Shown: one piece after another, positions 14,085-48,638 of the stretch
How positions within the stretch are numbered: position 1 is the stretch's first letter
How the letters are laid out: each line of letters opens with the position of its first letter
Assembly (NCBI GenBank): GCA_964388485.1
Contig: CAYMAS010000008.1
Location: forward strand, 24,423-88,422
Direction of reading: 5' to 3'
Length of the DNA stretch: 64,000 bases
Source of the DNA: an uncultured Tepidisphaerales bacterium
GTDB taxonomy: Bacteria; Planctomycetota; Phycisphaerae; Tepidisphaerales; Tepidisphaeraceae
Position numbers and translations under genes: made by a program
The notes under the pieces: model-generated
What the model saw: the letters and a program-made list of their open reading frames with translations, nothing else
Database searches by the model: none
Told to the model about the DNA's origin: nothing

Positions 14085-15645
14085 TCAGGCCGAGCGGCTG
14101 TTGTTGCCGAAGGTGCTGGCGACGCGGAGCACCGGCGGTTGGACCAAGGCCACCGCATCCAGCGGGGCGGCGTGGCGGATCGCGAAGTCGATCGTATCGC
14201 CCGGCAGCAGCGTGACCTGCTGATCGCTCACATCCGTACGCGAGTCAAGCCGATCCGCAAAGAGGCAGACGTCGCGTAGCAGAGACCCGGCGGCACGTCG
14301 AACTTGGCGAGCGACCGTGGCGCGACTGCGACGGCCTCGACGTGCTCATCGAGCGTCTTGCCCGCCAGATCGACCCGGCGCAGCCGGCAGTTTGCCGCTG
14401 ATCGGCAGGAACGGCGCGTGCGAGCGTGGGCCAGGCCGGTGGGCCGTGATAGCCGAACTCGGTGGCCATGCGTGGGTAGTGGCCCAGGTATCTGCGGTAC
14501 TGACCGTCGCCGCCCCAGACGCGGAGCATGTTCATGTTCGCATCGCAGGCGAGCGTCACGCGATGCCGATACCGCTGGCGGGTGATGCGGTGCGGGAAGC
14601 AGTCGTCGGGAATCCAATTGGCCCCTTTGCAGTAGATCGGCTTGTCGTTGACGAGGAGCGTCATCGTCGCGCCGCGCTCGTCGGGAACGGGATTGCCGAA
14701 TGCCTTGGGATCGGGCGACGTGTCGAGCCGGCTGGTGCGTAAGCCGATGCGACGGTGCCACGTTTGACTTGCGTCCGGGAGCGTGACGGTCAGGTCGTAC
14801 AGCGGCTGCTCGCCGTGGCCCAGCGGCCACCATAACGCCGGCGACGCAGCCCTGAAGGTCAACGGCGACTCGCCTTCGATCGTCTCGTCGAACCCGTGGC
14901 CGCTGAGCCGGGCGACGACTGGCCGCGTCTGCCCTTCGAGATCGACGTGCACCTCGACTTGTGCGAAATCCGCCGATGGAAGCGTCACCCGAGGCCGAAC
15001 GCTTGCCAGTCGCGTCGCGTCCCACGCCTCGATGCGGATCGGCCGCCAGATGCCGCTCGTCGGTACTTCCGGGCCCCAGTCCCAGCCGAAGTTGCAGGCC
15101 ATCTTGCGGACGTGGTTGTACGGATGCCGCCGTCCTGGAACGCCGCCTCGGTGAGGCAGTGACCCTTGTTCGGCTTCCTGCCGCCTCGCGAAGGGCACCG
15201 GCGCCGCAAACTTGATCGCCAGTCGGTTGTCGCCTTCGGCGAGCATCGGCCTGATGTTGAACCGGTGAACGACGTACATGTTGTCCGCCTTGCCGATCAA
15301 TTCGCCGTTGAGCGTGAGCGTCGCGAACGTGTCGAGGCCGTCGCAGACGAGCTCCACGTGCTCCGCCTTCAGCAGGGAGGCGTCGAGAAAGAAGGTCGTC
15401 TCGTACCGCCACGTCGTATGGCCGATCCAGTGCTGCTTGAGCTCGTTGCCGGCGACGTACGGGTCATCGATCAGGCCAGCGGCCAGAAGGTCGGTGTGGA
15501 TGCAACCCGGCACGGTGGCCCCCATGCTCGTGTTCTTCTGAAACACCTGCTTCAAGGGCTCCGGCACGTTGTCGGGCCCGTCGACGAGGTGCAGCGTCCA
15601 CGAATCAGAAAGGGTCACGGTCTTCCTGAGGAGCAACGTAGGCAA
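14085..15645 (-). pseudogene. Decayed GH2 beta-mannosidase (internal deletions plus at least 2 frameshifts)
   Basis: The N-terminal ~380 aa are beta-mannosidase-like up to NMNMLRVWGG. The sequence then jumps to the nucleophile block (ATEFGYHGPPAWPTL). Homology continues in a second frame (RRVDLAGKTLDEHVEAVAVAPRSLAKFDVPPG) and a third (DVCLFADRLDSRTDVSDQQVTLLPGDTIDFAI...stop 14085). Total is about 520 codons versus about 840 expected. Confidence 0.65.
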
Positions 15646-15655
15646 AACGTTGCGA
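15642..15655. promoter_or_regulatory. LacI-type operator-like site GCAAAACGTTGCGA
   Basis: AACGTT-centred imperfect palindrome overlapping the start of the beta-mannosidase remnant. Member of the recurring motif family. Confidence 0.45.
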
Positions 15656-15696
15656 CGGCCATGCCGGCTAGCCTCTTGGACCTATGTCTGAACGCA

Positions 15697-18600
15697 TCAG
15701 ACGTCCAACGCATTGCCTTCGTCATCGAACAGACTCCTGATGGGCGAGGTGACGCCCAGAGCGCGTCCGGTATGCTCGACTCGCTTGTCTTCGAAGGCAT
15801 TGCCGGTTGACGCATCGGACGAACTCGAGGGCAGCCGGGTGACGCGTGTGAAGGTCGAGACCGGCTCCGCCGCGTCGGCGTCGGACAGCCGCATCCTGAT
15901 GGTCACGCGGTCGTTGACCTGGACGTTGCCGAAGCCGGTGACGTATTGACCGTTGAGCGTCAACGAGTGGCCATCGGGGACGCGGTAGGTGACGTCGCGG
16001 GAGCCGGCGATCCAGTTGTCGACGATTTGGTGTCGCCGGATCGCCTGCGGGTCGAGGTTGTAATCGACGTTGGCCGCATCCCATTGGTCACGAATGGAGC
16101 GGCCGTTGGAGTCGTTGCTGTCGAAGAGGTCGGTGCGGACGGTGATCGTTCGCTGGCCTCCGTTGACGGAGAGGACGCGACCGGACCGCCAGATGGAATC
16201 GGCTTCGTAGTAAGCCGCCCGTTCCTCGTCGCCGGTTGTGAAGTCGACGACGCGGATCCGCTCGGTCGGCACCACGCCGTTGCCGCCGGAGAGGTCGTCG
16301 AGCACGAGGACGAGTTCCTCCATGACGTTTCCGTCGCCGATGAAGCTGCCGTCGATGGTGATCCCGTTGCCGAGGTTTCGGGAGAAGGTTTCGGACAGCT
16401 GGTCGCCGCTTCGAGTGGTGATCTCGGGCCAGACGAAGTTGTGGTTCGGCGCGAGTCTGCTGAGGCGTGTGAAGGCGGCGACTTTTTCGCCGACGACGAC
16501 GTCTGCCAACGAGCCGGCGTCTCTGTCGTCCTCGTAAACGGTGTGGGCGAGCTTGTCGAGGCGGAGCGATCGGCCTTGCCAATCGACCAGCACGTCGTCG
16601 CCGTCGATCGAGGTGACGGTCGCGTTGGCGAGCATCACGATCGGGTCGTCGGCCGAATCGGTCCGCCGTTGCTCGAGCGTCGACATCGTCGTATCGCCGG
16701 TCCCGCCTTGATCGAGCAGCTCGATCAGTTGGAACTCGGTGTCGTTGAAGTTGTTGACCGCTTGGAACGCACCGCCGCTGACGTCTTGGACGATGTTGTT
16801 CTCGTCGACGAGGTAGAAGATGTTCTGTCCGCCCCCGGCGAAGAGTCGGTCCTTGTAGAGCTGCTCGTTCGTATCGATGTAGACGTCGATGTCGTCGATC
16901 TGCGGGTGCTGCACGAGCACCTGCGAGAGACGGCGAGCGCGTTCCTCTTCGTCCCACGAGTGATGCTGCTCGTCGGGCCCCTCGGTCTTCGTGTAGTCGT
17001 TGTAGTCTCTGGCAGCGTAGTAGAAGTCGTGAATGGTGGTGGCGGTGAACTTCCAGTCGATGGCGTCGCCGAAGTTGTCCAGCGCCAGCGGGATCATGCC
17101 GATGCCGCGGGCGAACGGGATGTCGGTGCCCGCATTGGAGAAGAGGATCAGCGGCTTTCCATCGCGTAACTCCTGCACCGAGACGATCCCGGGTTCCGAC
17201 GTCGGCCCCTCGAACTGCGACTTGACGGTCGCGACCGGCTTGCCCGACGCGTTGTTCGAAACGTCGAAAGCACGCATCGGCCAGAGGTACTCGAGCACGC
17301 CTTGCTCGGTCAGAGGCCGACGAAAGCCGACATCCGGCGTCCCGACCTCGTTGAACGTGCTCGACTGACGCACATCGTCGAACTCCCGCACGTGAAAGTC
17401 CGGCAGCGACTCGCCGATGAAGCGTTCTTCGGTCCCACTCACGCGGTCGAAGGCGAAGCCGACGACATTGTCTCGCAGATCGAGCGGGTGCAGTCCGAGG
17501 TGGGCCGGCAGGAAGCTCTCGCCGCCCGATTTAGTGTTCTTGGCGATGCGGTAGTCGCTGATGTTCTGGACGTCCTCGCTCGTGAGCAGGCCGCTGACGT
17601 AGCCGTTGCGAAGGCTGGCGAGGCCGCGTGATTCGTCGACCTTCTCCGAAAGCATCAGGTCGCGATCTGCTTCGGCCTGGTCGAGCTCGGCGTCGGTCAG
17701 ATTCAGTTCATCGGCGAGGTAATGATCGTGGCCGCCTCGCTCGACGTCGCGGCCGATGGCGTACCAGACGCCGACGACGACGCTGCGAAAGGGCTCTTCG
17801 GCGGCGGTGAAGGGTTGGCCGTTGATGAACTTGTCGAGCAACTGCCGTCCGCCGCCGGTATCGATCCACGTCTCCAACGCGGCGGCGGCTTGCGGATAGC
17901 GGCTGTCGGCGGCGGTGGTGTCGGCCGTGTCACGCGTCACATAAACACCCGCCGCCAACTGCAAGTCCGCCAGCAGGCCCGTCGGCTCCGGCTGCTGTTC
18001 GATCTGATCCACCCAGAACTGCGGCGTCTGCCCGTTGCCCGTCGGTGGCGGATCGCCACCGCCGCCGCCCGTCTTGCTGCTCTCGGGCACGTTGCCGCTG
18101 GGCGTATAGCTCGACGACGAGTGCAGGACGATCTGGTCGAAGTCGAAGCCGTTCTCCCGCATCCAGACGTTGATCGTGTGAACGCCGATGCTCGGCACGT
18201 TGACCGTGGCGACCGAGCCGTCCATCGTGTTCTGGTTCCAGTTGAAGTTCACGCCGTACCCGTTCATCTGGTCGGCGGTCGAGACGGCCGAGCCGTTGAT
18301 GCCGACATGAAGGCTGTCGCTTTCGCCAGGATCGCTACCGCCGGCTCGGCCGTGGACCCAAACGTAGTGGGTGCCCGTGCGGTTGAACTCGACTTCGAAG
18401 TCGAGCCGCGGACTCTGCGACGACTCGTTGGCCTCGAACCGCTTCTGCGTGTCGTCCGGTCCGGCTTCCATGTGATTGCCGCCGTTGCCGCCGGACTTGC
18501 TGGTCCAGCTGTATGGATTGCGGGTCACGCTGTTGGCGAAGCTCTCGGCCTGCATCGAGACGAGGCCGCTGCTGTTCTGTTGGAATGCACCACTGCCGCC

Positions 18601-21600
18601 GGGGGTTCCGCCGCCCGTTCCGGCGAGCAGTTCGAGTTCGGCCAGTTGCACCAGGCCGGTGCCGCCCAGGCCGTTCTCGGTGCTGCCGTTGTTGTCGAGG
18701 ATCTGAAGGCGGTACCGCTCGTAGGCCGTCGTGTTCGAGACGTCGAACGTCCGCGTCTGGAATCGGCTCGAGAAGGTCTCGTCGGTGAACGTCTGGCCGA
18801 CGTTCGACCACGAGCCGCCGTTGGAGCCTTGGAGCACGAAGTCGCGTGGATCGCGTTCGGGCCGGTCGTTGGCGCTGGTGATCTTGAAACTCGTCACGAC
18901 GTGCTTCGTGCTGCCGGCAAAGTCGTAGCTGAGCCAGGCGCCGCTGCTGGTCGTGTTGCCGAGCCACTTGGTCGACGTGTTGCCGTCGAATGCCTTGGCG
19001 GCCGACTCGTTGGCGACGGGTTCACTCGACGCCGCGGCCGATCCGCCGACCGCGACGTTGCCGACGCTGCCGCCGGACGAGCCGCTGGGCGTGACTTCGA
19101 TCCACTGGATCTTGGCGTTGCTGCCGCCGGTGCCTTGGCTGATCGTCAGCCGGCCGTCGGTGACGCTTACCGACCCGACCAGCGTGTCGCGATTGTCCTG
19201 CCCGTCGGGATCGGCGAACAACGTGCCTTCGACGTTCAGCGAGTTGATCTGGTTGCTGTAGCTCGGATCGCCGGCACCGATGACGACGTCGTAGGTGCCG
19301 TTGGCCAGAGCCAGCTCCCAGGTGCGCGAGCTGCCGAGGGCGAAGTGGTTGAGCGTGTCCCACTTCTGATCGGCGTCGGCGTTGCGGTCACGGGTGTTGT
19401 TGTTCGACCCGCCGAGCCAGCCGTAGGTCTCGCCGTTGCGACTGCCATAGCTGCCGCCGGTGTCGGCGAGGTAGCCGCCAGGCGTCGAGACGCCGCCGGG
19501 TTGGAAGTTGATGCGGATCGGGTCGCCCGAACCGCCGCCGGTGGAGCCTTGCTTCTCGAAGGTGATGGCGTCGAGGTCGAAGCTGCCGCCGATGATTTCG
19601 AGACGAAGCACCTGCTCGCCGGCCGAAAGCGTCTTGTTCGACAAAGTCGTCGTCGTGAAGGTGTTCCAGCCGCCTGTGTTGGTGAGGTTGGTGAACGTGC
19701 CGAGCGTGCTGCCGTCGAGCTTGACGCGCACGTCGCCGGGGTTGCTCGATCCGCTGGCGTAATTCAGGACCAGGTCGTAGGTGCCGGCGTCCTGGACGTC
19801 GACGGTGTACTCGAGCCACTCGCCGCTTTCGTTGTACCCGACGGCGAGGTTGTTCGTAGCGCCGCTCTTGTTGCTGATGTCGACGCCTTCGCCGGAGCGA
19901 TAGCTGCTGTTGCCGCGATTATTGCCGTCGTCGTCGTTGTACGCGACGCCCTGGCCGCCGTTGTCGAAGTTTTCGAGTTGTAGAAGTGCGTTGTCATCGA
20001 CGTCGAAGGCCGAGCCGCCGAATGGCGATTGCCCGGCCGGCGGCGGCGGGGCGTCGGAGTCGCCGTAGACGAAGCTGTTGCCGGCGAAGCCGACGTAGAC
20101 GCGGCCGAAGACGTTCATGTCGCCGTTGAAGGCACGGACCTCATCGAGAATGCCGCCGGGGGCGTTGTCGATCTTGTCCCAGGTCTGGCCGTTGTCGATC
20201 GAGCGGTGGATCTCGGCTTTGCCGTCGACGAAGCCGTAGCCGAAGACGGTGGCGAAGTTGCTGCCGGGTGCGGCCTTGCCGAAGCCGACGTTGAGGGCCT
20301 GATCGAAGGGCCCGACCCGGTCCCACGTAACGCCGCCGTCGTTGCTGCGGTGCAGGCCGCCGTTGGTGCGGTTGTTGATCTGGTCGACGTCGGCGATCCA
20401 GAGGTGGCCCTGTTTGTCGGGCATGGCCTTCATTCGGCCGTGGACGAAGTTGGACTGGAAGCCACCGGGCGGGTTGTCGTTAATCTTGGACCACGTTTCG
20501 CCGAAGTCGGTGCTTCGGTAGATGTCACCATTACCAGAGGTTCGCCAGGCGTAGAAGGTCGAGCCATCGACCGGGTCGGCGACAAGGAGCTTGGCGTGGT
20601 GGAAGTAGGAGCCAATGAGTCCGCCGGGCAAACCTGAAACCTTGTTCCACGAGTCGCCACGATTGTCGGTGTAGTAGGCCTCGGCACCGGTGCCGGGAAT
20701 CCAGACCATGCGATCCACATTCGTGGAGCTGACAGCGATGTTGCCGTAGCGAAGGGCGTTCGGGTGATTCTCACTGGCATCGCCCGAAATCTTGGGCACG
20801 CCGATGGAGTCGAAGACGTTCCAGGTTCGCCCGCCGTCGTCGCTCCAGCCGCTGTAGTGCGTCGGCGGGCGAGGAACATTAGGCTTGTCCTGACTGATCA
20901 TTACGACGAAGTTGGGGTTCTGGTGGCTGTAATCCAGATCCCAACCGTTCGAGAAGTCGTTGCCCTTGAACGTTCCCAGCCCGTTGGCTTCGGCATTATC
21001 GCGGATCAGGTGCTGGTCCGGGTAGACCTCCGGATCCTCGTGCACGAAGCCGCTGCGGTCCCAGACGCTGGTCACGATGTCGCCGCCGGGCGGGGCGATG
21101 ACATCGGTGGCGACCATCTCCTCGATGCCCGCCGAGATGCCGTTCCAGCCGATCCTGTTGTCGCTGAGATCGGTCGAACGCCACACGCCGATGCCCTGGG
21201 CGAACCACATCCGGCCGTCGACGTGCGGGTCGAAGGCGATGTCGGCGGCGGACAGGTAGTTCTCGTTCGTCCACATGTGCCACGGCACGTCGGCCGAATT
21301 GCGCTCGAGGCCGGCCCTGTCCCAGGTGTCGGCACCGTCGGTGCTCCGGAACATCGTGTTGCCGCCGTTGACGACGTAGACGTCGTTCGTGTCGAACGGG
21401 TTGACGGCGATGTCGAGGTACGAGTCGCCGGCGTTGCGCGGCGTGACGTCGCGCCAGGTGCCGACGTTGGCATCGAACTCCCACACGCTGCCGGCATTAA
21501 TGTAGGTCGTTTCGCCGCTGTCTCCAAAGTCGCCGTCGTTATTGAGGTCTACTTGAATCCTCCAGTCAGGGTGGTTGCTTCGGCTGTCACTCGAAACGTA

Positions 21601-22473: not shown

Positions 22474-22723
22474 CGGATCCTCCAGACGATTAGGACGTCG
22501 CCGGCCCCACATTGAGGCCGGCAGGCTCTCCCACCTGATGATCGCCACAACCTCCTCCAACGCCGCCGAACCGGCGAAAAGATCGCAACGATGCGAACCT
22601 ATCGAAATGGGCAAGCCGTTGCAATCCCACCAGCCTCATCAGACAGATTTTTTCGCACATTCGGCGCTGGTGTCGGTTCTGGATCGCCGGCTCAAGCCAT
22701 AACGCACCCTTCGTCACTCTCGC

Positions 22724-22735
22724 TGCAACGTTGCA
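22724..22735. promoter_or_regulatory. Perfect palindrome TGCAACGTTGCA (LacI-type operator candidate)
   Basis: Lies in the divergent intergenic region, about 83 bp upstream of ATG 22813 and about 256 bp upstream of ATG 22473. A weaker relative, TCGCAACGATGCGA, is at 22583..22596. Confidence 0.65.
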
Positions 22736-22812
22736 ATGCGACTGCTCGTTGGGTAAGGTGATGGCGATATGAGTCGGCCTCTGCCCGCCGGCTCGATCTG
22801 CAGGAGGAATCT

Positions 22813-24636
22813 ATGATCACAGCCCATCACCGCCGCCAGGCCGCACGCCTGCTGCTCACCACCGTTTGCCCGCTCTTCGCCGCTGGAAGCGTCTCGGCTC
22901 AGCTTGGCGATTTATCGTCCGAAGTCTTCGAATTTCAGGAATGGACCCTCACCACCGGCTCAGCCCCGGCCAACCCCTACGAGGTCGATGCCACCGCCAC
23001 CTTCACGCCCGTCGACGGCGGGGCGGCACTGGAGACGGGCGTGTTCTATGACGGCATCGACGGCAGCGGACAGCACGTTTACAAGTTCCGGTTCACCGGC
23101 ATCGAAGCTGGCCAAACTTACAACGTTGCCACCTCCGGCGACCTAGGCGTGCAGACGGGCAGCTTCACCGTCGCGCCCAATGCCAATGGCAACGCTACCG
23201 GCTTCCTCACGAACGTCGGTAACAAGTTCGCCCGCCAGGTCGGCAACGACGGCCAGGTCCGCGGCGAGTTGTTCAACGTCTACATGAATCTCACGGCGTA
23301 CAACACCGAGCAGCTGACCACGCTGGCCGACGAGTCGACACGTCAAGCTTATTTCGACGAAGTCAAGGCCAACGGCTCCAATGCCGCCTTTGTCGCGCTC
23401 AACAACGAGTGGTTCGAGCTGGGCACTCAGAAGCGGATTGAACTCACCGGCACCGGCCCGTTCAACCCGGACCTCGACACGTTTGCGATCCTCGAGGAGA
23501 CGATTCAGCATGCGCGACGCGAAGGCGTGCACCTTCACATGTGGGCGTGGGGCGACGACTCCAGTCGTCGGCGATGGACCCCGCCCGGCGACGACAAGTC
23601 GCTCGACGTTAACGGCACCAACGACCGGCGCCTGCAGGAGTACATCGCCGATCGGCTCGCGCCGCTGCCGGGATGGTCGATGGGCTACGGCTTCGACCTC
23701 AACGAGTGGACCGACGACTCGGAGATCAACGACTGGGCCGGCTTCGTGCAGAGTGAATCGACCCGTGACCACCTGCTCTTCGCCCGCCACTACGCCGCAA
23801 GCGATGGCCCCGACGTCAACAATGGCGGCGGCGGCAACTCGCGTCGGGCCGACAACCTCAGCGGCCACTCGTACGCCACCGAAACTGACTTCGACGGCAG
23901 CGGCAACCCGCGTCCAGAGGGGCCCGGGCTGGAGACGACGCCGCTCGGACCGACCGGATACGCCGAGATCGTGAGCGACCTGCGAGCCGGACCTGACAAG
24001 CCGCACCTTTACGAGGAACGCTTCACCTTCAACCGCTCCAACGGCTACTGGAACCAGGACCGCACGCGGCAATTCCACTGGCTCGGGGCGATCGCCGGCG
24101 GCGTGGGCAACTGGTGGGGCTTCTTCCCGAAGTCGCCGGGAGAGCCTGATGCACCCGTCGATGGCGGCTATCCCGAGCCGCTGCGGACGCAGCTGCAAAC
24201 GTTCCGCACCTTCTGGACCGACAACAACCGGCTCAAGCTCGACATGGAGCCGGCTAATGAAATTACCGGTAACACCGTGCTCGACGGCGGCAGCGACACG
24301 CTGCAGTACGTCCTGCTGAGTGAGGCCGAAGATTTGGCCGTCGTCTATGCCGAGGAGACGGACACCATTACGCTGAATCTAAGCCAGATCGATGACCCGG
24401 ACTTTGCGGCGGGCGTGAAACTGACGCTCGTCGACGTGTTGGCGTCGTACGACGAGATCGACCTCGGCGGCTTCGCACTGGAGGACATCGTCCTCGACCT
24501 GAACAACTACGACCTCCCCGGCGACGCGACGAGCGACTGGGCCTTGGTCATCACGCCCATTCCCGAGCCATCGACGGCCGCGGTAGGCCTCGTGACCGGC
24601 CTCGTGCTGACCGCCCGGCGCCGTCGCTGCAACTGA
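22813..24636 (+). CDS. DUF5060 + DUF4038/GH140-like TIM-barrel protein with PEP-CTERM anchor
   Basis: GGAGGA 5 nt before the ATG. Signal peptide present. ANPYEVDATATFTP...GVFYDG...YKFRFTG is DUF5060-like. C-terminus IPEPSTAAVGLVTGLVLTARRRR is a PEP-CTERM tail. Confidence 0.7.
   Translation: MITAHHRRQAARLLLTTVCPLFAAGSVSAQLGDLSSEVFEFQEWTLTTGSAPANPYEVDATATFTPVDGGAALETGVFYDGIDGSGQHVYKFRFTGIEAGQTYNVATSGDLGVQTGSFTVAPNANGNATGFLTNVGNKFARQVGNDGQVRGELFNVYMNLTAYNTEQLTTLADESTRQAYFDEVKANGSNAAFVALNNEWFELGTQKRIELTGTGPFNPDLDTFAILEETIQHARREGVHLHMWAWGDDSSRRRWTPPGDDKSLDVNGTNDRRLQEYIADRLAPLPGWSMGYGFDLNEWTDDSEINDWAGFVQSESTRDHLLFARHYAASDGPDVNNGGGGNSRRADNLSGHSYATETDFDGSGNPRPEGPGLETTPLGPTGYAEIVSDLRAGPDKPHLYEERFTFNRSNGYWNQDRTRQFHWLGAIAGGVGNWWGFFPKSPGEPDAPVDGGYPEPLRTQLQTFRTFWTDNNRLKLDMEPANEITGNTVLDGGSDTLQYVLLSEAEDLAVVYAEETDTITLNLSQIDDPDFAAGVKLTLVDVLASYDEIDLGGFALEDIVLDLNNYDLPGDATSDWALVITPIPEPSTAAVGLVTGLVLTARRRRCN
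23118..23131. promoter_or_regulatory. Intragenic operator-like site TTACAACGTTGCCA
   Basis: Contains the CAACGTTG core. Centre is 395 bp from the centre of the 22724..22735 palindrome. Confidence 0.35.
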
Positions 24637-39564: not shown

Positions 39565-39596
39565 CGCCTGCCGGCTGTGACACCCTGGAGGAACCT

Positions 39597-41882
39597 ATGA
39601 CCCGCCCGACGAAGCGTCTCACTTCATGCGTTCGTCTCGCCCTCGCCGCTTGTCTGCTCGGCGGGGTTGCCGTCGCCTCGGCCGAGGAAGCCAAGCCCGT
39701 CGATCACTGGATCGAGCAGCGACGCGAGCAGCAGGCCCAGCAGAACGACGAGCGGCTGGCCGAGCTGCAGCTGGCGGCGGGCGTCTATCTCAGCAACAAG
39801 GGTGCCCGCGAGACGGCCGAGAAGACCGGCTTCCCCGAAGCCGCCGCGGCGCTCGAGCAGTACATGGCCGGCGAGGGCAAGGCTCTGCTCGCCAAGGTGC
39901 GGGCGGGCGAAGCGCTGACCGACGAGGAGCAGAAGTACCGCAACGTTGTCCTGGCCGTCTGGTACCGCGTCGGCCACAGCGCCGGGTCCGACATCAAGAA
40001 GGACCGCGAGCTGGAGCACGAGTACTACCTCGCAGACGAGCTCGATTTGTCTGCTGACGACATGCGGCAGGCGTATGCCGACCTCGGCAAGGCGAGGGAG
40101 CACGGCATCGAAGTGCTCCGCCAGGCTTACCTCGACGGCGGCATGCTCACGGCCGAGGATCTGCAGGCGATCGAAGACCTGCGCATCGCGTACAGCGGCC
40201 AGTCGATCAGCGAGATGTACCTGCCGGCGCAGCTCGGGTTCCACCCGCTCGCCCCGCGCAGCAAGCCCGACGGCGACTTCTCCTGGGGCCACGAGATCCG
40301 CCGCCAGTTGCCGGGCACGAAAGCACCGGACGTCCGGCGGGCGACGCTCGAAGCCGTCCGCGAACGTGACAGCTACACCGAAATCCCCGACTTCGCCCGT
40401 GGCTTCCGCTCTCTCGTCCGGCCGGACGGCGTGCTGGAGTATCTCGTTCCGATGAGCGGGTACGAGATGAGCGAAGTCGACGGCACGCCAATCGCGAAGC
40501 TGCCCGATAACCTCGCGGGTCCGGGCGGCGAAGGCACCGTCTCGGTGCAGGAGATCGTCGACGGCAAGCCGGTGCTCTTCTTCCACAACGACCCGGTCGA
40601 CCTGCCCTTCACGCGGGCGATCGACATGGTGCCGGTCGTGATGAAGGCGTACGAGGACGTCTTCGACTTCCACTTCGCCACCGTTGGCATCCACGACCGC
40701 AACTACGCCTCCAACCGCTTCTACGAGTTCGCCAATCCCAGCGGCAGTCTTCGGGTCGGGCACCACCACACGTGGGACGAAGAAGAGCGTGCCCGCCGAT
40801 TGAGCGTCATGCTCGTCCAGTGGCCGCAAAGTGACGTCTTCCCGGCGAGCGTCGACAACATGTTCGACCACACGAAGGACCGTTTTGCCGGCAACGGCGG
40901 GCAAAACCGGTACTACCTCGTCGGCCACGACGGCGTGATCAGCCACGAGAACGCCGGACCCTTCGAGGCGACGAACGAGTTCAATGTGGCCGAAGGCGCG
41001 ATGATCCGACTGCTCGAGAACGGCGGCACCGGCGTCGTCGAAGAGGCGGACAAGCTGCCCTACTTCGCCCCGAGCGACCCCGACCTGCTGATCACCTCGG
41101 CCGACGTGACGAAGGTCGATTCGGACGGCATCGAGCTGAGCTGGAACGGCAACACGTTCCGCGTCGAGCCGACCGAGCACGCCCGCGTCACGCTGAACCA
41201 CGAACCGGCCGAGCTGAACGACCTGCAGGTCGGCGACAAGGCGATCGTCTTCTCGCGGCTGAGCCGGGTGATGCCTGGCGTGAGCTTCGCATGGCCGGAC
41301 GTCGGGCACGAGCGCCTCAGCGAGCCGATGACGCTCGAACAGGACGGCCGGACCTTTGTCGGCCGCCGCTTGGGGCACATGAATTCGATGGACCAGCACG
41401 TCCTGCTGCTCGATGACCTCGACGGCATCGACGTCCTGCCAGGTACGCAGATCATGGGCCTGCGTGACCAGAAGCGGCACAATCGCCAGGAAACCTATGC
41501 CAACACGAGGATCATCTGGCGGGGCGGCCGCGTGACGGCGGTCGATCCCCAGACGCGGGAAGTCACCGTCGCCTGGCACGACTACGACACCGACGGTGTC
41601 AACGGCCGCTCCATCCTGAAGGAATGGGACGACGAGGGCATCGAGTACAAGCTCGACCGCGACACAAAACGTCGCCACGAAATCGTCGAGACCTGGATCG
41701 AAGCCGGCTCAGGAGAGTCGAAGCTCCACGTGCCCGATCACTGCGCGATCACGCTCAACGGCCGATACCAGAACGACATCGTTGCCGAGCCGGGGGATTT
41801 CGTCACCGCACGCTTCCCGCTGAACGTGATGGATCAAGGGACGCCGCCGACGAACTTCCTGCGGATCACCCGCCTGCCCTGA
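39597..41882 (+). CDS. Secreted protein consisting of the unassigned 'module X' (paralog of the giant protein's C-terminus)
   Basis: GGAGGAACCT before the ATG. Signal peptide ...LALAACLLGGVAVASAEE. 761 aa. Ordered shared blocks with 15830..18030(-), including HHTWDEEERARRLS (40761..40799). Confidence 0.85.
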   Translation: MTRPTKRLTSCVRLALAACLLGGVAVASAEEAKPVDHWIEQRREQQAQQNDERLAELQLAAGVYLSNKGARETAEKTGFPEAAAALEQYMAGEGKALLAKVRAGEALTDEEQKYRNVVLAVWYRVGHSAGSDIKKDRELEHEYYLADELDLSADDMRQAYADLGKAREHGIEVLRQAYLDGGMLTAEDLQAIEDLRIAYSGQSISEMYLPAQLGFHPLAPRSKPDGDFSWGHEIRRQLPGTKAPDVRRATLEAVRERDSYTEIPDFARGFRSLVRPDGVLEYLVPMSGYEMSEVDGTPIAKLPDNLAGPGGEGTVSVQEIVDGKPVLFFHNDPVDLPFTRAIDMVPVVMKAYEDVFDFHFATVGIHDRNYASNRFYEFANPSGSLRVGHHHTWDEEERARRLSVMLVQWPQSDVFPASVDNMFDHTKDRFAGNGGQNRYYLVGHDGVISHENAGPFEATNEFNVAEGAMIRLLENGGTGVVEEADKLPYFAPSDPDLLITSADVTKVDSDGIELSWNGNTFRVEPTEHARVTLNHEPAELNDLQVGDKAIVFSRLSRVMPGVSFAWPDVGHERLSEPMTLEQDGRTFVGRRLGHMNSMDQHVLLLDDLDGIDVLPGTQIMGLRDQKRHNRQETYANTRIIWRGGRVTAVDPQTREVTVAWHDYDTDGVNGRSILKEWDDEGIEYKLDRDTKRRHEIVETWIEAGSGESKLHVPDHCAITLNGRYQNDIVAEPGDFVTARFPLNVMDQGTPPTNFLRITRLP
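39938..39951. promoter_or_regulatory. Intragenic operator-like site CCGCAACGTTGTCC
   Basis: CAACGTTG core. Centre is 387 bp from the centre of the 39551..39564 palindrome. Confidence 0.35.
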
Positions 41883-41905
41883 AGCCGATTCGAAACACCT
41901 TTGTT

Positions 41906-44587
41906 ATGAAGACGATCACCACCACCGCGATTCTGTCGCTGGCCGTCGCCGCCGTTGCGACTGCCGAGCCGGCCGAGGAAAATCTCAACGACCGCCTGCC
42001 CGAACGCAGCGGCAACGACTACGGCTTTCGCGACTGGAAGGTCAGCGACGCCGACTTCAAGATCGTCAAGGATCGCCTCGTCCGCGACGGCGTCAGTCCG
42101 GAGCTCGTCGATCAATATCGGCCGTTCCTCAACAGTGCCGACCGTCGCGACGCCAATGAGGGCAGCTGGCAGAAGCGATACTTCAAGCCGGGGTACCCCG
42201 ATGGCCTCGGCAACGTCGAACTGGCGAAGCTCGGTTATCTTGATGTCACCGCTGCGCCCTTCAACGTCAAACCAGACGACGGCCGCGACGACACGCTGGT
42301 CCTGCAGGATGCGATCGACTTCGCTCGCGACCACCAGCTCGTCACCTACCTCCCGGCCGGCGAGTACAACGTCAGCGACACGCTGCACCTGGCCCAGGGC
42401 ACGACCCGCATGGCCGACGGCAAGATTAGCACGACCGACATGTACGGCGTCTACGTCGTCGGCGAAAAGACCAACGACGGCAAGCGGGCCCGCATCGTCC
42501 TGGCCGACGGCAGCTTTCCCAACGCCGACTCCACCCGCCCGCTCATCTACGTCCAGCGGGTCGGCGAGCCCAAGACGGGTCGCAAAATCAGTCGAAACTC
42601 TAACACCGTCAACTACGGCAACCTCGTCCACGGCCTCGAGCTCGTCCTAGGCGACAACCCCGGAGCGTGGGGCATCAGCTTCCAGGCGGCCGAGGGCTCG
42701 ACGATGCAGGATTTGGTCATCGACGCCCGCGGAGCCAACGGCGGCATCAACGGCTTTCCCGGCTCCGGCGGCGGAACCTTCGACATCACCGTCATCGGCG
42801 GCAAGGTCGGCGTGCAGAGCGACGAGTTCCCAGGGTCGGACGGCGTCGACTTCGAAGGTGCCACGCATACCCAGCCCGGCCCGACCATCGCGGGCATGAC
42901 GCTGATCGACCAGGAGCTCTACGCCATCGCCCACGAGAACCGCGGCAACCTCGTCGCCGTCGGCATCACGATCGAGACCGAAAAGAACGGCCCAGTCATC
43001 CGTACCCGCGAGCATTGGTGGGGCGATCCCTACGGCAGCAGCCTGGCCCTCATCGACGCGACCATCGAGTACAAGTCGGCCTCACCCGACAACACCGTCC
43101 TCGACGCCGGCCGCAGCGTCTGGCTCGAAGACGTCTACGTGAAGAACGCCGCCCACATCGGCGAGTCACGCTTTCCAGCCGCCTCGGGTCAGCCTTGGAC
43201 GCACGTGAAGGCGCTCGGCATCGCCAAGGAGCTCTGGACCGAGCCGCGGACGGCGAAGGTCAAGCAAGAGGACGGCAGCACGAAGGAAGTGACGGTCGAT
43301 GTCGACGAACGCGTCTACGTCGACGGCCAGCCGATCGGTGACTACCTGTACGAGTCGACCGGCGTCAGCCAGCCGCCGGCCGACGTGGCGACGCGGCACC
43401 AGATGGGCGATGTCCTGCCGGTGATGGACGATGCCCAGAACATCAAGGATCACGGCGCGATTGGCGACGGCACCGCCGACGACACCGCCGCGATCCGTAA
43501 GGCGATTCGGGCCGCCGGACCGGGCGGCACGGTCTTCGTGCCCAAGGGCGTCTTCGTCACGACGGACACGCTCGACCTGCTGCCGAACCAGACGCTCATC
43601 GGCGTGCATCACAAGCTGTCGAACATCGTCGGGGCCGAAGACGACAAGCGCGGCCGCTTCGGCAAGGACGACGATCCGACCACGGGCGAACCCGTCATCC
43701 GCACCGTCGATGCCGCCGACGACGAAACCGTCATCGGCATGATCGGCATTCGGCACGCACGGTCGATGGGCTCCCACGACCCGCGACCCATCGGCATCTA
43801 CGCCCTCGAGTGGCGAAGCGGCCAGGGCAAGGTCTTCGGCGTCGAGGCCAAGGCGGAGCTCAACACGAACTGGTGGGAACGCCAAGTCCTTCGCCTCCAC
43901 CTGAACGCCGACGACGCGAAGCTCGACGAGTACTACCAGTCCGACGAGCTCGGCAAGCTCGACCCCCGCGTCGGCTGGGAGATTCCGCACCCCGAAGGCA
44001 AGGGCGGCTACGGCAGCGGCCCGGGTCCCGACGGCTCATACCCAATTAGCCCAATCAGCCACCCGCTCGTCCAGGTCCGCGGCAACGGCGGCGGGCAGTG
44101 GTTCCAGTTCTGGAACCACGGCTACGACCCGGTCACCAGCGACTACCGCATCCTGCTCGTCGAGGACACGACCAATCGCTTCGAGGTCTATCACCTCCAC
44201 GGCCAGCACAAACGCTCCGACGCCCAGTTTGAAGTCCGCCGTGCCAAGAACGTCCACTTCTACGGCTCCAAGCAGGAAGTGCACGACACGTTCCTGCGAA
44301 TCGTCGACAGCGACGGCATCTACGTCTACGGCTACGCCGGCATCGGTGGGCCGTTCAAGAAGGGCGACGCGATCTACGAGATCGAGAACTCAACGAACGT
44401 GCTCATCACGACGCCCGGCGACGAACCGATCCTCAACAGTGCCGGCTACGGCCTGAGCAGCCCGCGCAGCCGGCTGTGGCGTCCGTTCGTCGGCGACTTC
44501 CACCTGGCGACCGACGACGCCACCGGCTCGACGCCGCCCGCCGCCCGCCCAGTCGCCTACATGCTCGGCGAGCCACTAGAGCAGTAG
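41906..44587 (+). CDS. Tandem pectate_lyase_3 / GH55-like double beta-helix protein, secreted
   Basis: Signal peptide MKTITTTAILSLAVAAVATAEP. Two copies of the N-cap motif (FNVKPDDGRDDTLVLQDAIDFA...YLPAGEY; IKDHGAIGDGTADDTAAIRKAI...VFVPKGVF). The upstream ORF extension to 41624 overlaps the previous gene and is discarded. Confidence 0.6.
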   Translation: MKTITTTAILSLAVAAVATAEPAEENLNDRLPERSGNDYGFRDWKVSDADFKIVKDRLVRDGVSPELVDQYRPFLNSADRRDANEGSWQKRYFKPGYPDGLGNVELAKLGYLDVTAAPFNVKPDDGRDDTLVLQDAIDFARDHQLVTYLPAGEYNVSDTLHLAQGTTRMADGKISTTDMYGVYVVGEKTNDGKRARIVLADGSFPNADSTRPLIYVQRVGEPKTGRKISRNSNTVNYGNLVHGLELVLGDNPGAWGISFQAAEGSTMQDLVIDARGANGGINGFPGSGGGTFDITVIGGKVGVQSDEFPGSDGVDFEGATHTQPGPTIAGMTLIDQELYAIAHENRGNLVAVGITIETEKNGPVIRTREHWWGDPYGSSLALIDATIEYKSASPDNTVLDAGRSVWLEDVYVKNAAHIGESRFPAASGQPWTHVKALGIAKELWTEPRTAKVKQEDGSTKEVTVDVDERVYVDGQPIGDYLYESTGVSQPPADVATRHQMGDVLPVMDDAQNIKDHGAIGDGTADDTAAIRKAIRAAGPGGTVFVPKGVFVTTDTLDLLPNQTLIGVHHKLSNIVGAEDDKRGRFGKDDDPTTGEPVIRTVDAADDETVIGMIGIRHARSMGSHDPRPIGIYALEWRSGQGKVFGVEAKAELNTNWWERQVLRLHLNADDAKLDEYYQSDELGKLDPRVGWEIPHPEGKGGYGSGPGPDGSYPISPISHPLVQVRGNGGGQWFQFWNHGYDPVTSDYRILLVEDTTNRFEVYHLHGQHKRSDAQFEVRRAKNVHFYGSKQEVHDTFLRIVDSDGIYVYGYAGIGGPFKKGDAIYEIENSTNVLITTPGDEPILNSAGYGLSSPRSRLWRPFVGDFHLATDDATGSTPPAARPVAYMLGEPLEQ

Positions 44588-44599
44588 GCGAACCTTCCG

Positions 44600-45811
44600 T
44601 CACGACGCCTCTGCCAGACGCTCGCGCCGCCACCGGCCGGGCGTCATGCCGCAGACCTGCACGAAGGCGTTCGTGAAGCTCGACTGGCTCGCATAACCGA
44701 CCGCCTGGGCGACGTCTGCCAGAACGATGTCCTGCCGCCGAAGCAGCGTCCGGGCCGCCTCGATCCGGATGCGACGGATCTCCTCAGCCGGCGTGCGGCC
44801 CAGTGATCGGACCATCTTCCGCTCGAGCGAGCGACGACTCACCGCGATCGACTTGCAGAGCTGGCCCACTGTCATCCCCCGGCACGCGTGGCGCCGCATA
44901 TGCGTCAACGCCTCGCGAACAGCCTCGTCTTGCACGGCCAGCATCTGCGTGCTCTGCCGGCCGACGACCTCCTTGGGCGGCACGGTCCAGACGTTGCCAC
45001 GACCGCCCGCGACCGTGTCGACGTCCCGGCCGTTCATGAGGGCATCGAGCAGCTTTGCCGCGACGCGGCCGACCTGTTCCACGTCGAGATCGACACTCGA
45101 CAAGGGCGTGCGAGCGAACTCCGCCAGCAGCTCGTCGTTGTTCACGCCGACGACGGCAACATCGTCCGGCACGCGCAGCCCGATCGACGCGGCAGCACTA
45201 AGCGTCACGATCGCCGCCCGATCGTCGACCACGAACATGCCGACGGGTGACGGGACCCGGTGAAGAACGCTCACCGCGTGCTCCTGTGTGACAAGCTCCG
45301 GCAAAACTCCCTCTGCAGATGGAAATCTGGCGTCACCCAGCGTGACGCAATCGGCATCGGCCTGCTCGATCTCGGCGACGAATCCGACTTGCCGTAGTCG
45401 CCCGACCCGCCAGCGTGTGCTCAGGCAGCCGAACCGCTTGTACCCGCGGTCGAGTAAGTGCCTCGCTGCTGCCCGACCCACCGCTTCTTCATCCGGCAGC
45501 ACCGACGGCAGCACCGCCTCGCCCGAAGACTCTGGATCGGCCGACGCTTCTGCAAAGACCGTGTGGTACAACGTGTTGACGATCGGCAGGTCCAGCTTCG
45601 CGACGACGGCGACCTCGGCTTCAGTCCGCGGGAGCACGACCAGGCCGTCGATAGGCATCACGCGGAGGCGGTCGACGGCTGCGGGCTCAAGAGCAGAAGG
45701 CACGATCTCGACGTTCCAGCCGTCTCTCTGGCGGCCGACGCTGCTCATGCCGCGGGCGAGGGCGATGAGGAGCGGAAGGTTGAACTGGCTGAGAATCGCA
45801 ACGTGCCGCAT
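44600..45811 (-). CDS. XylR-type regulator (periplasmic-binding-protein-like sensor + AraC HTH)
   Basis: N-terminal PBP type I-like domain. C-terminal AraC HTH (VGQLCKSIAVSRRSLERKM...VGYASQSSFTNAFVQVCGMTPGRWR). Confidence 0.8.
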   Translation of the reverse strand: MRHVAILSQFNLPLLIALARGMSSVGRQRDGWNVEIVPSALEPAAVDRLRVMPIDGLVVLPRTEAEVAVVAKLDLPIVNTLYHTVFAEASADPESSGEAVLPSVLPDEEAVGRAAARHLLDRGYKRFGCLSTRWRVGRLRQVGFVAEIEQADADCVTLGDARFPSAEGVLPELVTQEHAVSVLHRVPSPVGMFVVDDRAAIVTLSAAASIGLRVPDDVAVVGVNNDELLAEFARTPLSSVDLDVEQVGRVAAKLLDALMNGRDVDTVAGGRGNVWTVPPKEVVGRQSTQMLAVQDEAVREALTHMRRHACRGMTVGQLCKSIAVSRRSLERKMVRSLGRTPAEEIRRIRIEAARTLLRRQDIVLADVAQAVGYASQSSFTNAFVQVCGMTPGRWRRERLAEAS

Positions 45812-46164: not shown

Positions 46165-47310
46165 ATGCCCACCCTCATCGATATTGCCAAGGCAGCCAAC
46201 GTTTCACCATCGACGGCGAGCCTAGTGCTGAACAAGCGGCCTGGTCGCAAGGCAGCCAGCGTCAAAGCCACTGCCGCAGTCATGGAGGCGGCCCGCAAGC
46301 TGGGCTACGTGCCCAACTACCACGCCCGCAGCATGAAGACGGGGCGGGCTCAGGCCATTGCCCTGGCACTGCATACGGAACCGGCAGCCGTCGTCAGCGA
46401 TACCCGGCTCGGCAACCAGTACTTCGGCTCGCTCGTCGGCGGCGTCGAGATCGTGCTGGCGCAGGCCGGTTACTCCATGATCGTCGTGCCGAGCGAGGGG
46501 TCGCTGCTAGCGCCCGACCGAGCCGTGGCGATGCTGCGGCAGCGGCAAGTCGACGGCGTGGTGGCGATCGGCGTGACGCTCGACGGCATCGACAAGCCGC
46601 TCTTCGAGCAGCATCCGCCACTCGAAACCGAAGCCGTCGTTGTCCTCCACCAGCCGCCGCGGGGTCTGAGCCGGCAGATCGGCAGCGTCGCCTGGGACGA
46701 AGCCCACGGCGTCCGCCTCGCCGTCGAGCATCTCGTCCAACTCGGCCACGACAAGATCCTCTGGCTCGCCCCCGCCGGCGGCCGTTTGCAGAGCCCGATC
46801 ATCCGCGAGCAGCTCGTCATGCAAATGGGCTGGGACTGCGGCGTCCGGGGCGGCGGACGCGTCTACTTCGAAGATTGCAACTTCGACGACGCCACCATCA
46901 AGAGCTCTGCCGACAGCGGTCACGCCGTCACCGAGAGGAACGCCGCCGCCGCGGAAGCTGCGTTGCGTCAGCACCTCCGGGCGAACAAGACGCGGGACTA
47001 CACGGCAATCCTCTGTTACAGCGATCTCGCCGCCGCCGGCGCGCTGCGGGCGTTACGACGGGCGAACCTGCGGGTGCCCGAGGATGTGAGCGTGGTCTCC
47101 TTCGACGATCTGCAGGCGTCTTATCTCGATCCGCCGGTGACGAGCGTGAACCAGATGCTCGTCCAGATGGGCCGGCGGGCGGGGCGGATGTTGCTCGACG
47201 CGCTGGAAGCCGAAGATTCCGCTGCGGCAGTCCGCGAACTCAACAAGCGGCAGGATGTCATTAAACCCGAGATCGTCGTCCGTCAAAGTACAGGTCCAGC
47301 AGAGCGTTAG
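46165..47310 (+). CDS. LacI family transcriptional regulator
   Basis: MPTLIDIAKAANVSPSTASLVLN...AARKLGYVPNYHARSM is the LacI HTH, followed by a sugar-binding domain. ATG 46165 (GTG 46156 alternative). Confidence 0.9.
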   Translation: MPTLIDIAKAANVSPSTASLVLNKRPGRKAASVKATAAVMEAARKLGYVPNYHARSMKTGRAQAIALALHTEPAAVVSDTRLGNQYFGSLVGGVEIVLAQAGYSMIVVPSEGSLLAPDRAVAMLRQRQVDGVVAIGVTLDGIDKPLFEQHPPLETEAVVVLHQPPRGLSRQIGSVAWDEAHGVRLAVEHLVQLGHDKILWLAPAGGRLQSPIIREQLVMQMGWDCGVRGGGRVYFEDCNFDDATIKSSADSGHAVTERNAAAAEAALRQHLRANKTRDYTAILCYSDLAAAGALRALRRANLRVPEDVSVVSFDDLQASYLDPPVTSVNQMLVQMGRRAGRMLLDALEAEDSAAAVRELNKRQDVIKPEIVVRQSTGPAER

Positions 47311-47569: not shown

Positions 47570-48565
47570 TCAGTCGGTCCAGTCGAAGACACTCGTCGCC
47601 CGCTTACCTCTTGTCTCGAATGCCGCTGCGTAGGCCGAATCGGCTTCGGCGGGGCAGAAGGGCGTTCCGTAGAGGTCGTCGAGCCGCAGACGCCCCTCAC
47701 TCATCAGCCGCAGCACTCGCTTTCGAGCAGCCGGCCCCTCGTCGCGTGGCAAGAGGAACGTCGTCTCGACCATGAACGCCAAGTTGTACGGGATGCTGAA
47801 GTCGCCGGGATAGCTCCCTTGGATCAGGTAGCGCGGCGGCAAGGTGCGGGTGCCCCAGTCGCGGCTCTTGAGCAGCGAGATGGCGTGCGGCAGGACCCGC
47901 TCGACACCCGTTGCATCACAGATGATGTCGAAGTAGCCGAAACGCTCGACGGCGTCTTCACCTAGCGGTTTGTCGAGGCCGGGCTCGATGACTATTGCAT
48001 TTAAACCGGCGTCGACGGCCTTGCGACAACGGGACGGGCTGACATCGGCAGCGACTGTTTCGCACTCGATGTGAAACAGCCGCGACGCGATCTGCCCGAT
48101 CAGGCCGAGACCCAAGACGAGGACACGTTCCCCCGGCTGCGGCGTCGCGCGATCCACGCCGTGCGAAGCGATTGCGGCCATTTTGGAAAGACTCGCCTCA
48201 ACCAGCTCCACGCCATCGGGAATCTGCCGGACGTCTGAGGCGACACACAAGGATGCAGAGGCGTGGCCGCCCCAGAGCCGCTGCAATTCGTCGGGCAAAT
48301 CGCCACCACCCAGCACGACGCGATCACCTTCCGCGAACTGATCCGATCGCGTCTTGATCACCACGCCCGCCGAGCTGTAGCCGGGAACGAGGGGAAATCG
48401 GCTGCCGGGCTGGTCGCCCGAAAGCACCCGTCGCTCGGTACCCGGGCTGACGGCGGAGTAGTCGGTTCGCACCAACACCTCACCGCTGCCGGGATCAGGC
48501 AGATACACGTCTCGCAACGCGATGGACTCGGCAGCTTCGAAGACGATGCACGTAGCAGCATTCAT
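47570..48565 (-). CDS. MDR-family (zinc-type alcohol/polyol dehydrogenase-like) oxidoreductase
   Basis: GEVLVRTDYSAVSPGTE...VPGYSSAGVV...VLVLGLGLIGQIA (GxGxxG) pattern. Confidence 0.75.
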   Translation of the reverse strand: MNAATCIVFEAAESIALRDVYLPDPGSGEVLVRTDYSAVSPGTERRVLSGDQPGSRFPLVPGYSSAGVVIKTRSDQFAEGDRVVLGGGDLPDELQRLWGGHASASLCVASDVRQIPDGVELVEASLSKMAAIASHGVDRATPQPGERVLVLGLGLIGQIASRLFHIECETVAADVSPSRCRKAVDAGLNAIVIEPGLDKPLGEDAVERFGYFDIICDATGVERVLPHAISLLKSRDWGTRTLPPRYLIQGSYPGDFSIPYNLAFMVETTFLLPRDEGPAARKRVLRLMSEGRLRLDDLYGTPFCPAEADSAYAAAFETRGKRATSVFDWTD

Positions 48566-48582
48566 TGGAGGTCTCGGCAGCT

Positions 48583-48596
48583 TCCAAACGTTGCGT
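48583..48596. promoter_or_regulatory. Operator-like site TCCAAACGTTGCGT
   Basis: AACGTT core about 19 bp upstream of the dehydrogenase ATG (48565, minus strand). Confidence 0.45.
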
Positions 48597-48624
48597 TCCC
48601 CACTCTAACGCTTGAGCGGGAGGT

Positions 48625-48638
48625 TTACAACGTTGCAC
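48625..48638. promoter_or_regulatory. Operator-like site TTACAACGTTGCAC
   Basis: CAACGTTGCAC half identical to the 39551 site. About 99 bp upstream of ATG 48736. Confidence 0.55.

Follow-up and report, generated by a model that had tools for sequence, protein, structure and literature searches.

CG-centred palindromes upstream of a planctomycetal glycan-utilisation island: probable operators of an island-encoded LacI-family regulator

We analysed a 64,000-nucleotide stretch of DNA (the window) from an uncultured Tepidisphaerales bacterium of the phylum Planctomycetota (assembly GCA_964388485.1, contig CAYMAS010000008.1, positions 24,423 to 88,422), in which Pfam and NCBIfam searches define a glycan-utilisation island at 14.2-49.9 kb, flanked by genes with housekeeping functions. 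Ten palindromes with a central CG precede nearly all transcription units of a 33-kb cluster of polysaccharide-degradation genes in this island, and we propose, with a probability of roughly 0.7, that they are operators of a LacI/GalR-family repressor, whose most likely identity is the LacI-family protein encoded within the island at 46165-47310. This proposal starts from a motif that is enriched in the window, confined to promoters of the island and conserved in a second species, and from a regulator gene that is intact.

A palindrome confined to island promoters

The most compact form of the motif is the octamer CAACGTTG, of which the window holds eight exact copies (positions 22726, 23121, 29292, 31516, 33284, 39554, 39941 and 48628), against an expectation of 0.85 +/- 0.96 from dinucleotide shuffling; none of 100 shuffles attained eight. 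Its density in ~443 kb of unrelated bacterial DNA of 60-70% GC, namely the loci of unrelated LacI genes (at most 35% identity) among the matches listed in a scan of a genome collection, was 0.72 per 64 kb. In a gene map built from open reading frames (ORFs) supported by third-codon-position GC content (GC3) and from Pfam hits, intergenic DNA amounts to ~6.5% of the window, and yet it contains 6 of the 8 octamers (binomial P = 1.8e-6) and 9 of the 17 AACGTT hexamers (binomial P = 3e-7). An initial annotation of the sequence had counted eight octamers, six of them intergenic, with about one or fewer expected by chance, and it had made its proposal depend on a bias towards promoters; both the counts and the bias hold, the motif not being equally frequent in coding DNA. 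The distribution across the window is uneven as well: sites occur in 8 of the 13 intergenic gaps that measure 40 bp or more within the island (15.6-48.7 kb), versus none of 16 in the housekeeping flanks, and the five site-free island gaps comprise two convergent ones, two short intra-operon ones and the divergent gap between the two regulator genes.

Intergenic DNA is slightly richer in AT than the remainder (61% vs 65% GC), which favours AACGTT, and the palindromes could conceivably be an artefact of chance or composition, or a restriction-modification or methylation target of the form AACGTT without transcriptional role. However, a first-order Markov model of the intergenic DNA (GC 61%) yields 0.078 octamers and 0.80 AACGTT hexamers, against 6 and 9 observed. 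In the flanks AACGTT itself shows neither clear depletion nor clear enrichment (31 kb with 1 copy, compared with ~5 per 64 kb of control DNA), the pattern is confined to a single island, and sites recur at orthologous positions in a diverged relative described below. This explanation is effectively refuted. A repeat search of the window showed that the motif does not belong to a longer repeat or mobile element, Rfam produced no family match anywhere in the window, and the string CAACGTTG was not found in the supplements of the RegPrecise papers.

All nine coordinates listed in the initial annotation hold a perfect or imperfect AACGTT-centred palindrome, including the perfect 12-mer TGCAACGTTGCA at 22724-22735 within site 3, and the supposed 14-mer at 39551 is a true palindrome that extends to a perfect 16-mer, GGTGCAACGTTGCACC, the best of all sites (Table 1). 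The sites conform to the consensus nYRCAAC-GTTGYRn, with constant spacing, two-fold symmetry, the same register throughout and a central CG in 10 of 10. Conservation is concentrated in the core CAAC-GTTG and, within each half-site, in the two outer positions, which are Y-R; further out the sequence is uninformative, so that the informative core measures 12 nt, at the short end of the range of LacI-family operators. Because the information is concentrated in this way, the full 12-mer is a poor descriptor and only weakly enriched (7 matches with at most two mismatches vs 2.2 expected; 3 of 100 shuffles attained 7). Operators of the LacI family are even inverted repeats of constant spacing, 16-22 nt long in 1251 of 1303 members, have a central CG pair in 1173 of 1303, and mostly lie 30-140 bp upstream of start codons (PMC4052901). 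The initial annotation had recognised the CG-centred palindrome as the LacI/GalR operator form, and the island element indeed displays these family hallmarks, namely an even inverted repeat, a central CG and an upstream position.

Distances to start codons depended on revised gene starts. The giant gene, which encodes a BNR/Sortilin-CBM6-F5/8C-GH115_C protein, starts at ATG 22473, preceded by GGAGGA, as seen in an alignment with the orthologous upstream region of the relative; the start at TTG 22614 given by the mechanical ORF call is ruled out by the same alignment. Hence a high-scoring match to the position weight matrix (PWM) at 22583-22596 falls in the leader of this gene and is counted as a tenth site. 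The most probable starts are ATG 30380 for the pseudopilin gene and GTG 15618 for the glycoside hydrolase family 2 (GH2) gene. With these starts the distance from site centre to start codon is 24.5-116.5 bp for nine of the ten sites and 237.5 bp for the remaining one, which precedes a long leader with a conserved putative hairpin; the upstream position of the sites had thus been correctly described before, while the earlier range of 19-256 bp is superseded by 24-117 bp and 237 bp. Two leaders have conserved features of their own. That of the giant gene downstream of the second operator (22474-22580, corresponding to 2190-2284 of locus L105 of the relative) is a conserved stretch of ~110 nt with invariant blocks, among them TGGAGGAGGTTGTGGC and an inverted repeat GCCGGYC...GGYCGGC. 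In the leader of the PEP-CTERM/pectate-lyase-2-like (PL2) operon, the start codon is preceded at ~45 bp by GGTGCC-N4-GGCACC (29093-29108; ~3900-3915 in locus L001 of the relative), an inverted repeat that is conserved: the relative has the same stem but another 4-nt loop (GCCT vs GCTC). The outer arms of this repeat are similar to the best operator's (GGTGC...GCACC), and it could function either as an RNA hairpin or as a second protein-binding site.

Table 1. Palindromic sites, regulator genes and putatively controlled genes in the window
Feature	Coordinates	Strand	Sequence	Position and remarks
Site 1	15642..15655		GCAAAACGTTGCGA	between giant gene stop and GH2 remnant; ~30 bp upstream of GTG 15618
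Site 2	22583..22596		TCGCAACGATGCGA	added to the first nine; one core mismatch; 116 bp upstream of giant ATG 22473
Site 3	22723..22736		CTGCAACGTTGCAA	divergent region between giant gene (-) and DUF5060/apiosidase-like gene (+)
Site 4	29289..29302		GCACAACGTTGTAC	237 bp upstream of PEP-CTERM/pectate-lyase-2-like operon
Site 5	30420..30433		TCACAACGTTACGA	~46 bp upstream of ATG 30380 of prepilin-type N-methyl (pseudopilin-like) gene
Site 6	31513..31526		CTGCAACGTTGTAG	divergent region; LamG/PEP-CTERM gene (-, 49 bp), beta-helix GLAA-B-like gene (+, 68 bp)
Site 7	33281..33294		TCGCAACGTTGTGT	41 bp upstream of sulfatase-BNR-GFO/IDH/MocA-RGL11-like operon
Site 8	39550..39565		GGTGCAACGTTGCACC	perfect 16-nt palindrome, best site; 39 bp upstream of 761-aa gene without Pfam match
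Site 9	48583..48596		TCCAAACGTTGCGT	24 bp upstream of Zn-dehydrogenase gene; 4 bp after TAGAGT
Site 10	48625..48638		TTACAACGTTGCAC	42 bp from site 9; 104 bp upstream of PD40-like gene (+)
Intragenic match	23118..23131		TTACAACGTTGCCA	395 bp downstream of site 3
Intragenic match	39938..39951		CCGCAACGTTGTCC	387 bp downstream of site 8
LacI-family regulator	46165..47310	+		candidate binder; 381 aa; Pfam LacI HTH, Peripla_BP_1, Peripla_BP_3
XylR-like hybrid regulator	44600..45811	-		sugar-binding domain and AraC HTH; divergent from LacI gene
Putative regulated span	14245..44587			GH2 remnant, giant, DUF5060-like with GH43-like/PA14, PEP-CTERM with PL2-like, pseudopilin-like, LamG-PEP-CTERM, beta-helix, sulfatase operon, 761-aa gene with Pect-lyase_RHGA-like
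Divergent Zn-dehydrogenase and PD40-like genes	47570..49863	- / +		flank sites 9 and 10

Two of the exact octamers lie within genes. The match downstream of site 8 may be an auxiliary site, whereas an auxiliary role for that downstream of site 3 is doubtful, since the orthologous codons of L105 (TACGACGTCGCG) do not preserve the latter, which is centred at 23124. The relative has an exact intragenic octamer of its own, 414 bp downstream of a primary site. Weaker PWM matches in coding DNA are likewise clustered: on the gene map used for this count, six of nine are no more than 500 bp from a primary site (P ~1e-4), although one of those six, 22589, was later placed in the leader of the giant gene rather than in coding DNA. 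Auxiliary intragenic operators and looping are therefore treated here as speculation. A run of rare A/T-ending codons (23096-23131, GAA GCT .. CAA ACT TAC AAC GTT) surrounds the octamer at 23121, in a gene with a GC3 of ~0.83 whose orthologous codons in the relative end in G or C. Half-site-like sequences at 45794-45811 and at 15209 of L105 were not counted, as they encode MRHVAI, the conserved N-terminus of the XylR-like protein.

The island LacI protein and its conservation

The initial annotation had placed a LacI gene at 46165..47310, and Pfam identifies there an intact LacI-family gene inside the island. Its product contains an N-terminal helix-turn-helix (HTH) domain (PF00356, residues 6-54, E = 1.5e-11, above the gathering score) and an effector-binding core (PF13377 and PF00532), and it gives full-length matches to solved LacI-family structures. 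The recognition region reads VSPSTASLVLN, with Pro-Ser at family positions AA-15/16 and Leu at AA-20, and the hinge reads YHARSMK (Ala54, Met57, Lys58), the hinge being invariant across the subfamily alignment A1. In the family the hinge helix reads the central CG through a conserved Ala (AA-51) and a hydrophobic residue at AA-54, which is Leu in 82% of members, while operator positions 5 and 4 are paired with AA-15 and AA-16, and the G at position 6 with an Arg at AA-20 (PMC2978694). The island protein has the conserved Ala and, at the CG-inserting position, Met instead of Leu, so that its residues are predicted to fit the canonical CG-centred binding mode with a non-standard outer specificity. 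It falls far below the cut-off of every named NCBIfam equivalog and thus lacks orthology to the named members (RbsR, PurR, CytR, GalR, CcpA and others), the best being RbsR at 133 bits against a 382-bit cut-off. Among database relatives there is one ortholog, 75% identical (P0002), followed by a small subfamily at 33-41% identity with the hinge PNYHARSMK. No C-terminal tetramerisation segment was found, the protein ending directly after its core domain.

Immediately upstream of the gene, 6 bp before its ATG, lies GCAC-TTTAA-GTGC (46147-46159; ~9982-9995 in L001, where it is conserved as GCACCTTAAAGTGC), and the gene start is without a Shine-Dalgarno sequence; this element may serve as a separate control site of the regulator gene, or else as the -10 if the transcript is leaderless. 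We also observed that members of the subfamily with the hinge PNYHARSMK, with Met for the usual Leu, repeatedly adjoin genes for PEP-CTERM and N-methyl/DUF1559-like proteins in unrelated metagenome contigs (L084 8989-12964, L089 974-4341, L001 9079-11146), and that the same members adjoin GH78, GH2, sulfatase and Zn-dehydrogenase genes.

The initial annotation had proposed comparing orthologous loci, and such a comparison is afforded by the P0002 locus of the relative, read as L001, L002 and L105, which is rearranged relative to the window. Its LacI protein is 75% identical overall and 100% identical through the recognition helix and hinge, and sites are kept at three orthologous places while their flanks have diverged: 1) The divergent region between the giant and DUF5060 genes carries CGCAACGTTGCAC (CGCAAC-GTTGCAC; L105 2049), with the same -35/-10 geometry and with the second element; site 2 and its immediate flanks are 100% conserved in L105 within a region that is 72% identical overall. 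2) The spacer between the giant gene stop and the GH2 gene carries a site at the same place (L001 16756 / L105 7378). 3) In the PEP-CTERM/PL2 promoter TTGACA-N17-TA(C/T)AAC-GTTG is conserved between the window and L001 amid diverged flanks. Further sites in the relative precede a GH92 gene and a second PEP-CTERM gene, the latter upstream of the LacI gene, and the central CG is present in every site found in L001 and L105. A paralogous glycan locus from the same metagenome (L101), which has a XylR-like gene but no LacI gene, shows no site in its promoters.

Promoter geometry, comparable operators and competing explanations

Several sites adjoin or overlap promoter-like sequences. Site 2 adjoins the 3' end of a conserved TTGCAR-N17-TARGYT element; the right half of site 3 provides a -35-like TTGCAA with TAAGGT 17 bp downstream; site 4 overlaps the -10 of a TTGACA-N17-TAYAAC promoter conserved between the window and L001 (alignment A2), the half-site TAYAAC itself being the -10; site 6 has TAGAGT 2 bp upstream on the minus strand; site 8 lies directly 3' of TTGACG-N17-TACCTT; and the minus-strand half-site TTGTAA of site 10 is -35-like and 17 bp upstream of the TAGAGT of site 9. 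Overall, 6 of 14 site/orientation pairs have a TANNNT hexamer whose end is 0-6 nt upstream of the operator (an estimated ~0.8 expected), and in four pairs the half-site GTTGYR supplies a -35-like TTGNNN 16-18 nt upstream of a TANNNT. This geometry is conserved in the relative for the giant, DUF5060 and PEP-CTERM promoters. A terminator scan found nothing at the sites.

The resemblance of GTTGCA/GTTGTA to a -35 and of TACAAC/TATAAC to a -10, together with their exact position in several promoters, raises the question of whether the motif is itself a promoter element, recognised by an alternative or extracytoplasmic function (ECF) sigma factor or forming a shared -35/-10 module. Such an element would be expected at a fixed position, but the sites overlap the -35 in some promoters, the -10 in one and lie just downstream of the -10 in others; one promoter can be flanked by two sites (48583 and 48625), and a strict two-fold palindrome with an invariant CG centre is unlike promoters. 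The variable but promoter-occluding placement is typical of repressor operators and argues against an element of the polymerase, which we regard as very unlikely.

We infer from these data that the LacI protein physically binds the sites, that it is this paralog which does so, that it represses rather than activates and that it responds to an effector. As a dimer it would contact each YRCAAC half-site with one helix-turn-helix and insert its hinge helices (Ala54, Met57, Lys58) into the minor groove at the invariant central CpG. As the operators overlap or abut the -35, the -10 or the start site, binding is proposed to block RNA polymerase at about ten transcription units, whose products are glycoside hydrolases, lyases, a sulfatase, sugar dehydrogenases, PEP-CTERM proteins and a pseudopilin-like protein. 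When the target polysaccharide is degraded, a sugar set free from it would bind the periplasmic-binding-protein-like core and lower the affinity for DNA, thereby derepressing the island. The system is most likely a well-supported, if ordinary, example of the well-known sugar-responsive LacI-type switch.

In sequence, the island sites come closest to the operators of E. coli CytR, for which the consensus forms TGCAA-N2-3-TTGCA and AYGTGCAAC-Nx-GTTRCATT are reported, with half-site spacing varying from 0 to ~3 helical turns, and which acts as an anti-activator together with CRP (PMC3454398). The half-site is the same, TGCAA-CG-TTGCA being identical to the perfect 12-mer of the island and GTGCAAC to its best half-site, and CytR is among the full-length NCBIfam matches of the island LacI protein. 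However, the island sites have fixed spacing, always a CG centre and no evident CRP-like partner site, and the island protein scores 103 bits against an equivalog cut-off of 436 and has the recognition residues Pro-Ser / TASL.

Operators of the PurR, RbsR and Cra type, such as ACGCAAACGTTTGCGT, are likewise comparable. They share with the island sites the even palindrome and the central CG flanked by A/T and then GC, and in these systems the hinge helices of the dimer enter the CG step, the operators overlap promoters and the effector is a sugar or small molecule (PMC4052901, PMC2978694). The island half-site is one base shorter from the centre to the GC (CAAC-GTTG vs CAAAC-GTTTG), its regulator has Met in the hinge where most of the family has Leu, and Leu rather than Arg at AA-20, and is not an ortholog. 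By analogy, the mechanism looks like that of a PurR/RbsR-type dimeric repressor with a half-site shortened by one base. The lac operators O1, O2 and O3 offer a third parallel, in that several operators can serve one promoter region (140 bp separate site 2 from site 3, the latter centred at 22729, and 42 bp separate site 9 from site 10), and in that lac O2, at +401, lies inside lacZ, much as the intragenic matches of the island lie 387-395 bp, and that of the relative 414 bp, downstream of a primary site. The missing tetramerisation tail and the lack of conservation of the 23124 match set the island apart, and looping of the lac type is hence unsupported. Intragenic LacI sites are on record (PMC4052901). 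The paired and intragenic operators (140 bp, ~390-415 bp) might allow cooperative or looped repression without a lac-type tetramerisation segment.

Several observations weigh against our proposal. The conserved core of 12 nt is below the usual 16-22 nt. The promoter of the LacI gene itself has no strong site, only the degenerate match TGGTACAACGTGCCACGG at 46105-46122, although autoregulation occurs in 72% of LacI-family factors and in over three quarters of local ones (PMC4052901); the relative has a good site overlapping the start codon of its PEP-CTERM gene upstream of the LacI gene, the two genes being on the same strand. The more distant subfamily loci (33-41% identity) give a patchy picture, with AACGTT-centred sites beside the LacI gene in L086, L089 and L084 and many loci without; the apparent replicates L086/L096 and L090/L092 are the same organisms at 100% identity, and the match in L090 lies within coding sequence. 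A stringent sigma-70 scan found no promoters at the sites, and the promoter overlaps described above rest on relaxed and partly post hoc criteria. Finally, the sequence read covers 64 kb of the genome, and other LacI paralogs, as well as further sites, are possible elsewhere.

This scope and the weak site before the LacI gene both favour the alternative that the palindromes are true LacI-type operators bound by a different LacI paralog encoded elsewhere, for example a broader carbohydrate regulator, in which case the local LacI protein would recognise another sequence. Planctomycete genomes commonly carry many LacI paralogs, which adds to the case for it. Against this, neither the 31 kb of flanking DNA nor the paralogous glycan locus that lacks a LacI gene contains the motif, and in the relative it co-occurs with an orthologous LacI protein whose DNA-reading residues are identical; we therefore consider another paralog rather unlikely as the binder. 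The XylR-like hybrid regulator is a further candidate, encoded in the island beside the LacI gene in both species (the pairing recurs in L001/L105). AraC-type tandem HTH domains, however, typically recognise longer, asymmetric or direct-repeat sites rather than CG-centred palindromes of 12-16 nt, and L101 has a XylR-like gene and no motif, which makes binding by this protein highly improbable. It is probably a second, separate regulator of the island. The LacI-family protein encoded at 46165-47310 remains the preferred binder.

The island and its putative regulon

The outline of a glycan island given in the initial annotation agrees with the domain searches, although Pfam did not confirm its labels 'GH74' and 'PL22'. 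Besides the giant protein, the island encodes the GH2 remnant, a DUF5060/apiosidase-like protein, a GH43-like protein with PA14, a pectate-lyase-2/GH127-like, an RGL11-like and a Pect-lyase_RHGA-like protein. It also encodes a sulfatase and a BNR protein, a beta-helix GLAA-B-like protein, a Zn-dehydrogenase and a GFO/IDH/MocA oxidoreductase, a prepilin-type N-methyl protein and two PEP-CTERM proteins. Each transcription unit of the span 14245..44587 is preceded by a site. The glutamate synthase has its best named relatives in Tepidisphaeraceae and Fontivita (61-64% identity), which places the window in an uncultured Phycisphaerae-type planctomycete; GltB proteins of further genomes are 76-88% identical (P0125-P0131).

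The GH2 gene at the left edge of the island looks decayed (14106-15618): residues 15-295 of the relative's 769-aa GH2 protein align in one piece, whereas residues 409-473, 612-655 and 694-763 yield short alignments that overlap in part and do not follow the original order, and no catalytic domain is left; the remnant is either a pseudogene or an assembly problem. The giant gene (15697-22473) compared with L105 2285-7279, and with the window's 41624-44587, shows domain shuffling behind a conserved promoter. Residues 951-1619 of the relative's giant match the giant of the window (64%), whereas its N-terminal 900 residues match not the BNR/Sortilin module but the separate Pect-lyase_RHGA-like protein of the window (46%). 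The N-terminal BNR/Sortilin region of the window's giant (20000-22300) is in turn paralogous to the sulfatase operon's stand-alone BNR protein (34652-36802), which is visible at the DNA level as inverted repeats, 70-82% complementary, that extend over ~1 kb. Outside the island, a third regulator of the classical AraC family (AraC_binding and HTH_18; 3550-4458) adjoins genes for a PhyH-like dioxygenase and an EamA transporter, with no motif site nearby.

Transcriptional control in Planctomycetota is almost unexplored, and our literature searches found no described LacI operator for this phylum. The island offers a concrete, though putative, operator-regulator pair, consisting of a 16-bp perfect palindrome and a 381-aa protein, and a defined putative regulon of about ten transcription units in an island for the utilisation of a sulfated or pectin-like glycan. 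It thereby provides a handle on the inducing sugar and hence on the substrate. Conceptually this would be a standard LacI-type switch that changes no general principle. The main source of interest is that genes for PEP-CTERM and pseudopilin-like proteins would be functionally tied to the use of polysaccharides. A more speculative and less likely reading is that in Phycisphaerae-type planctomycetes a single sugar-sensing LacI-type repressor might co-regulate carbohydrate-active enzymes with a DUF1559-like pseudopilin and PEP-CTERM proteins; members of its subfamily adjoin paired PEP-CTERM and N-methyl genes in unrelated contigs. In that case the PEP-CTERM and pseudopilin families, surface proteins that are abundant but of obscure function, would be substrate-inducible parts of the planctomycetal glycan-capture apparatus.

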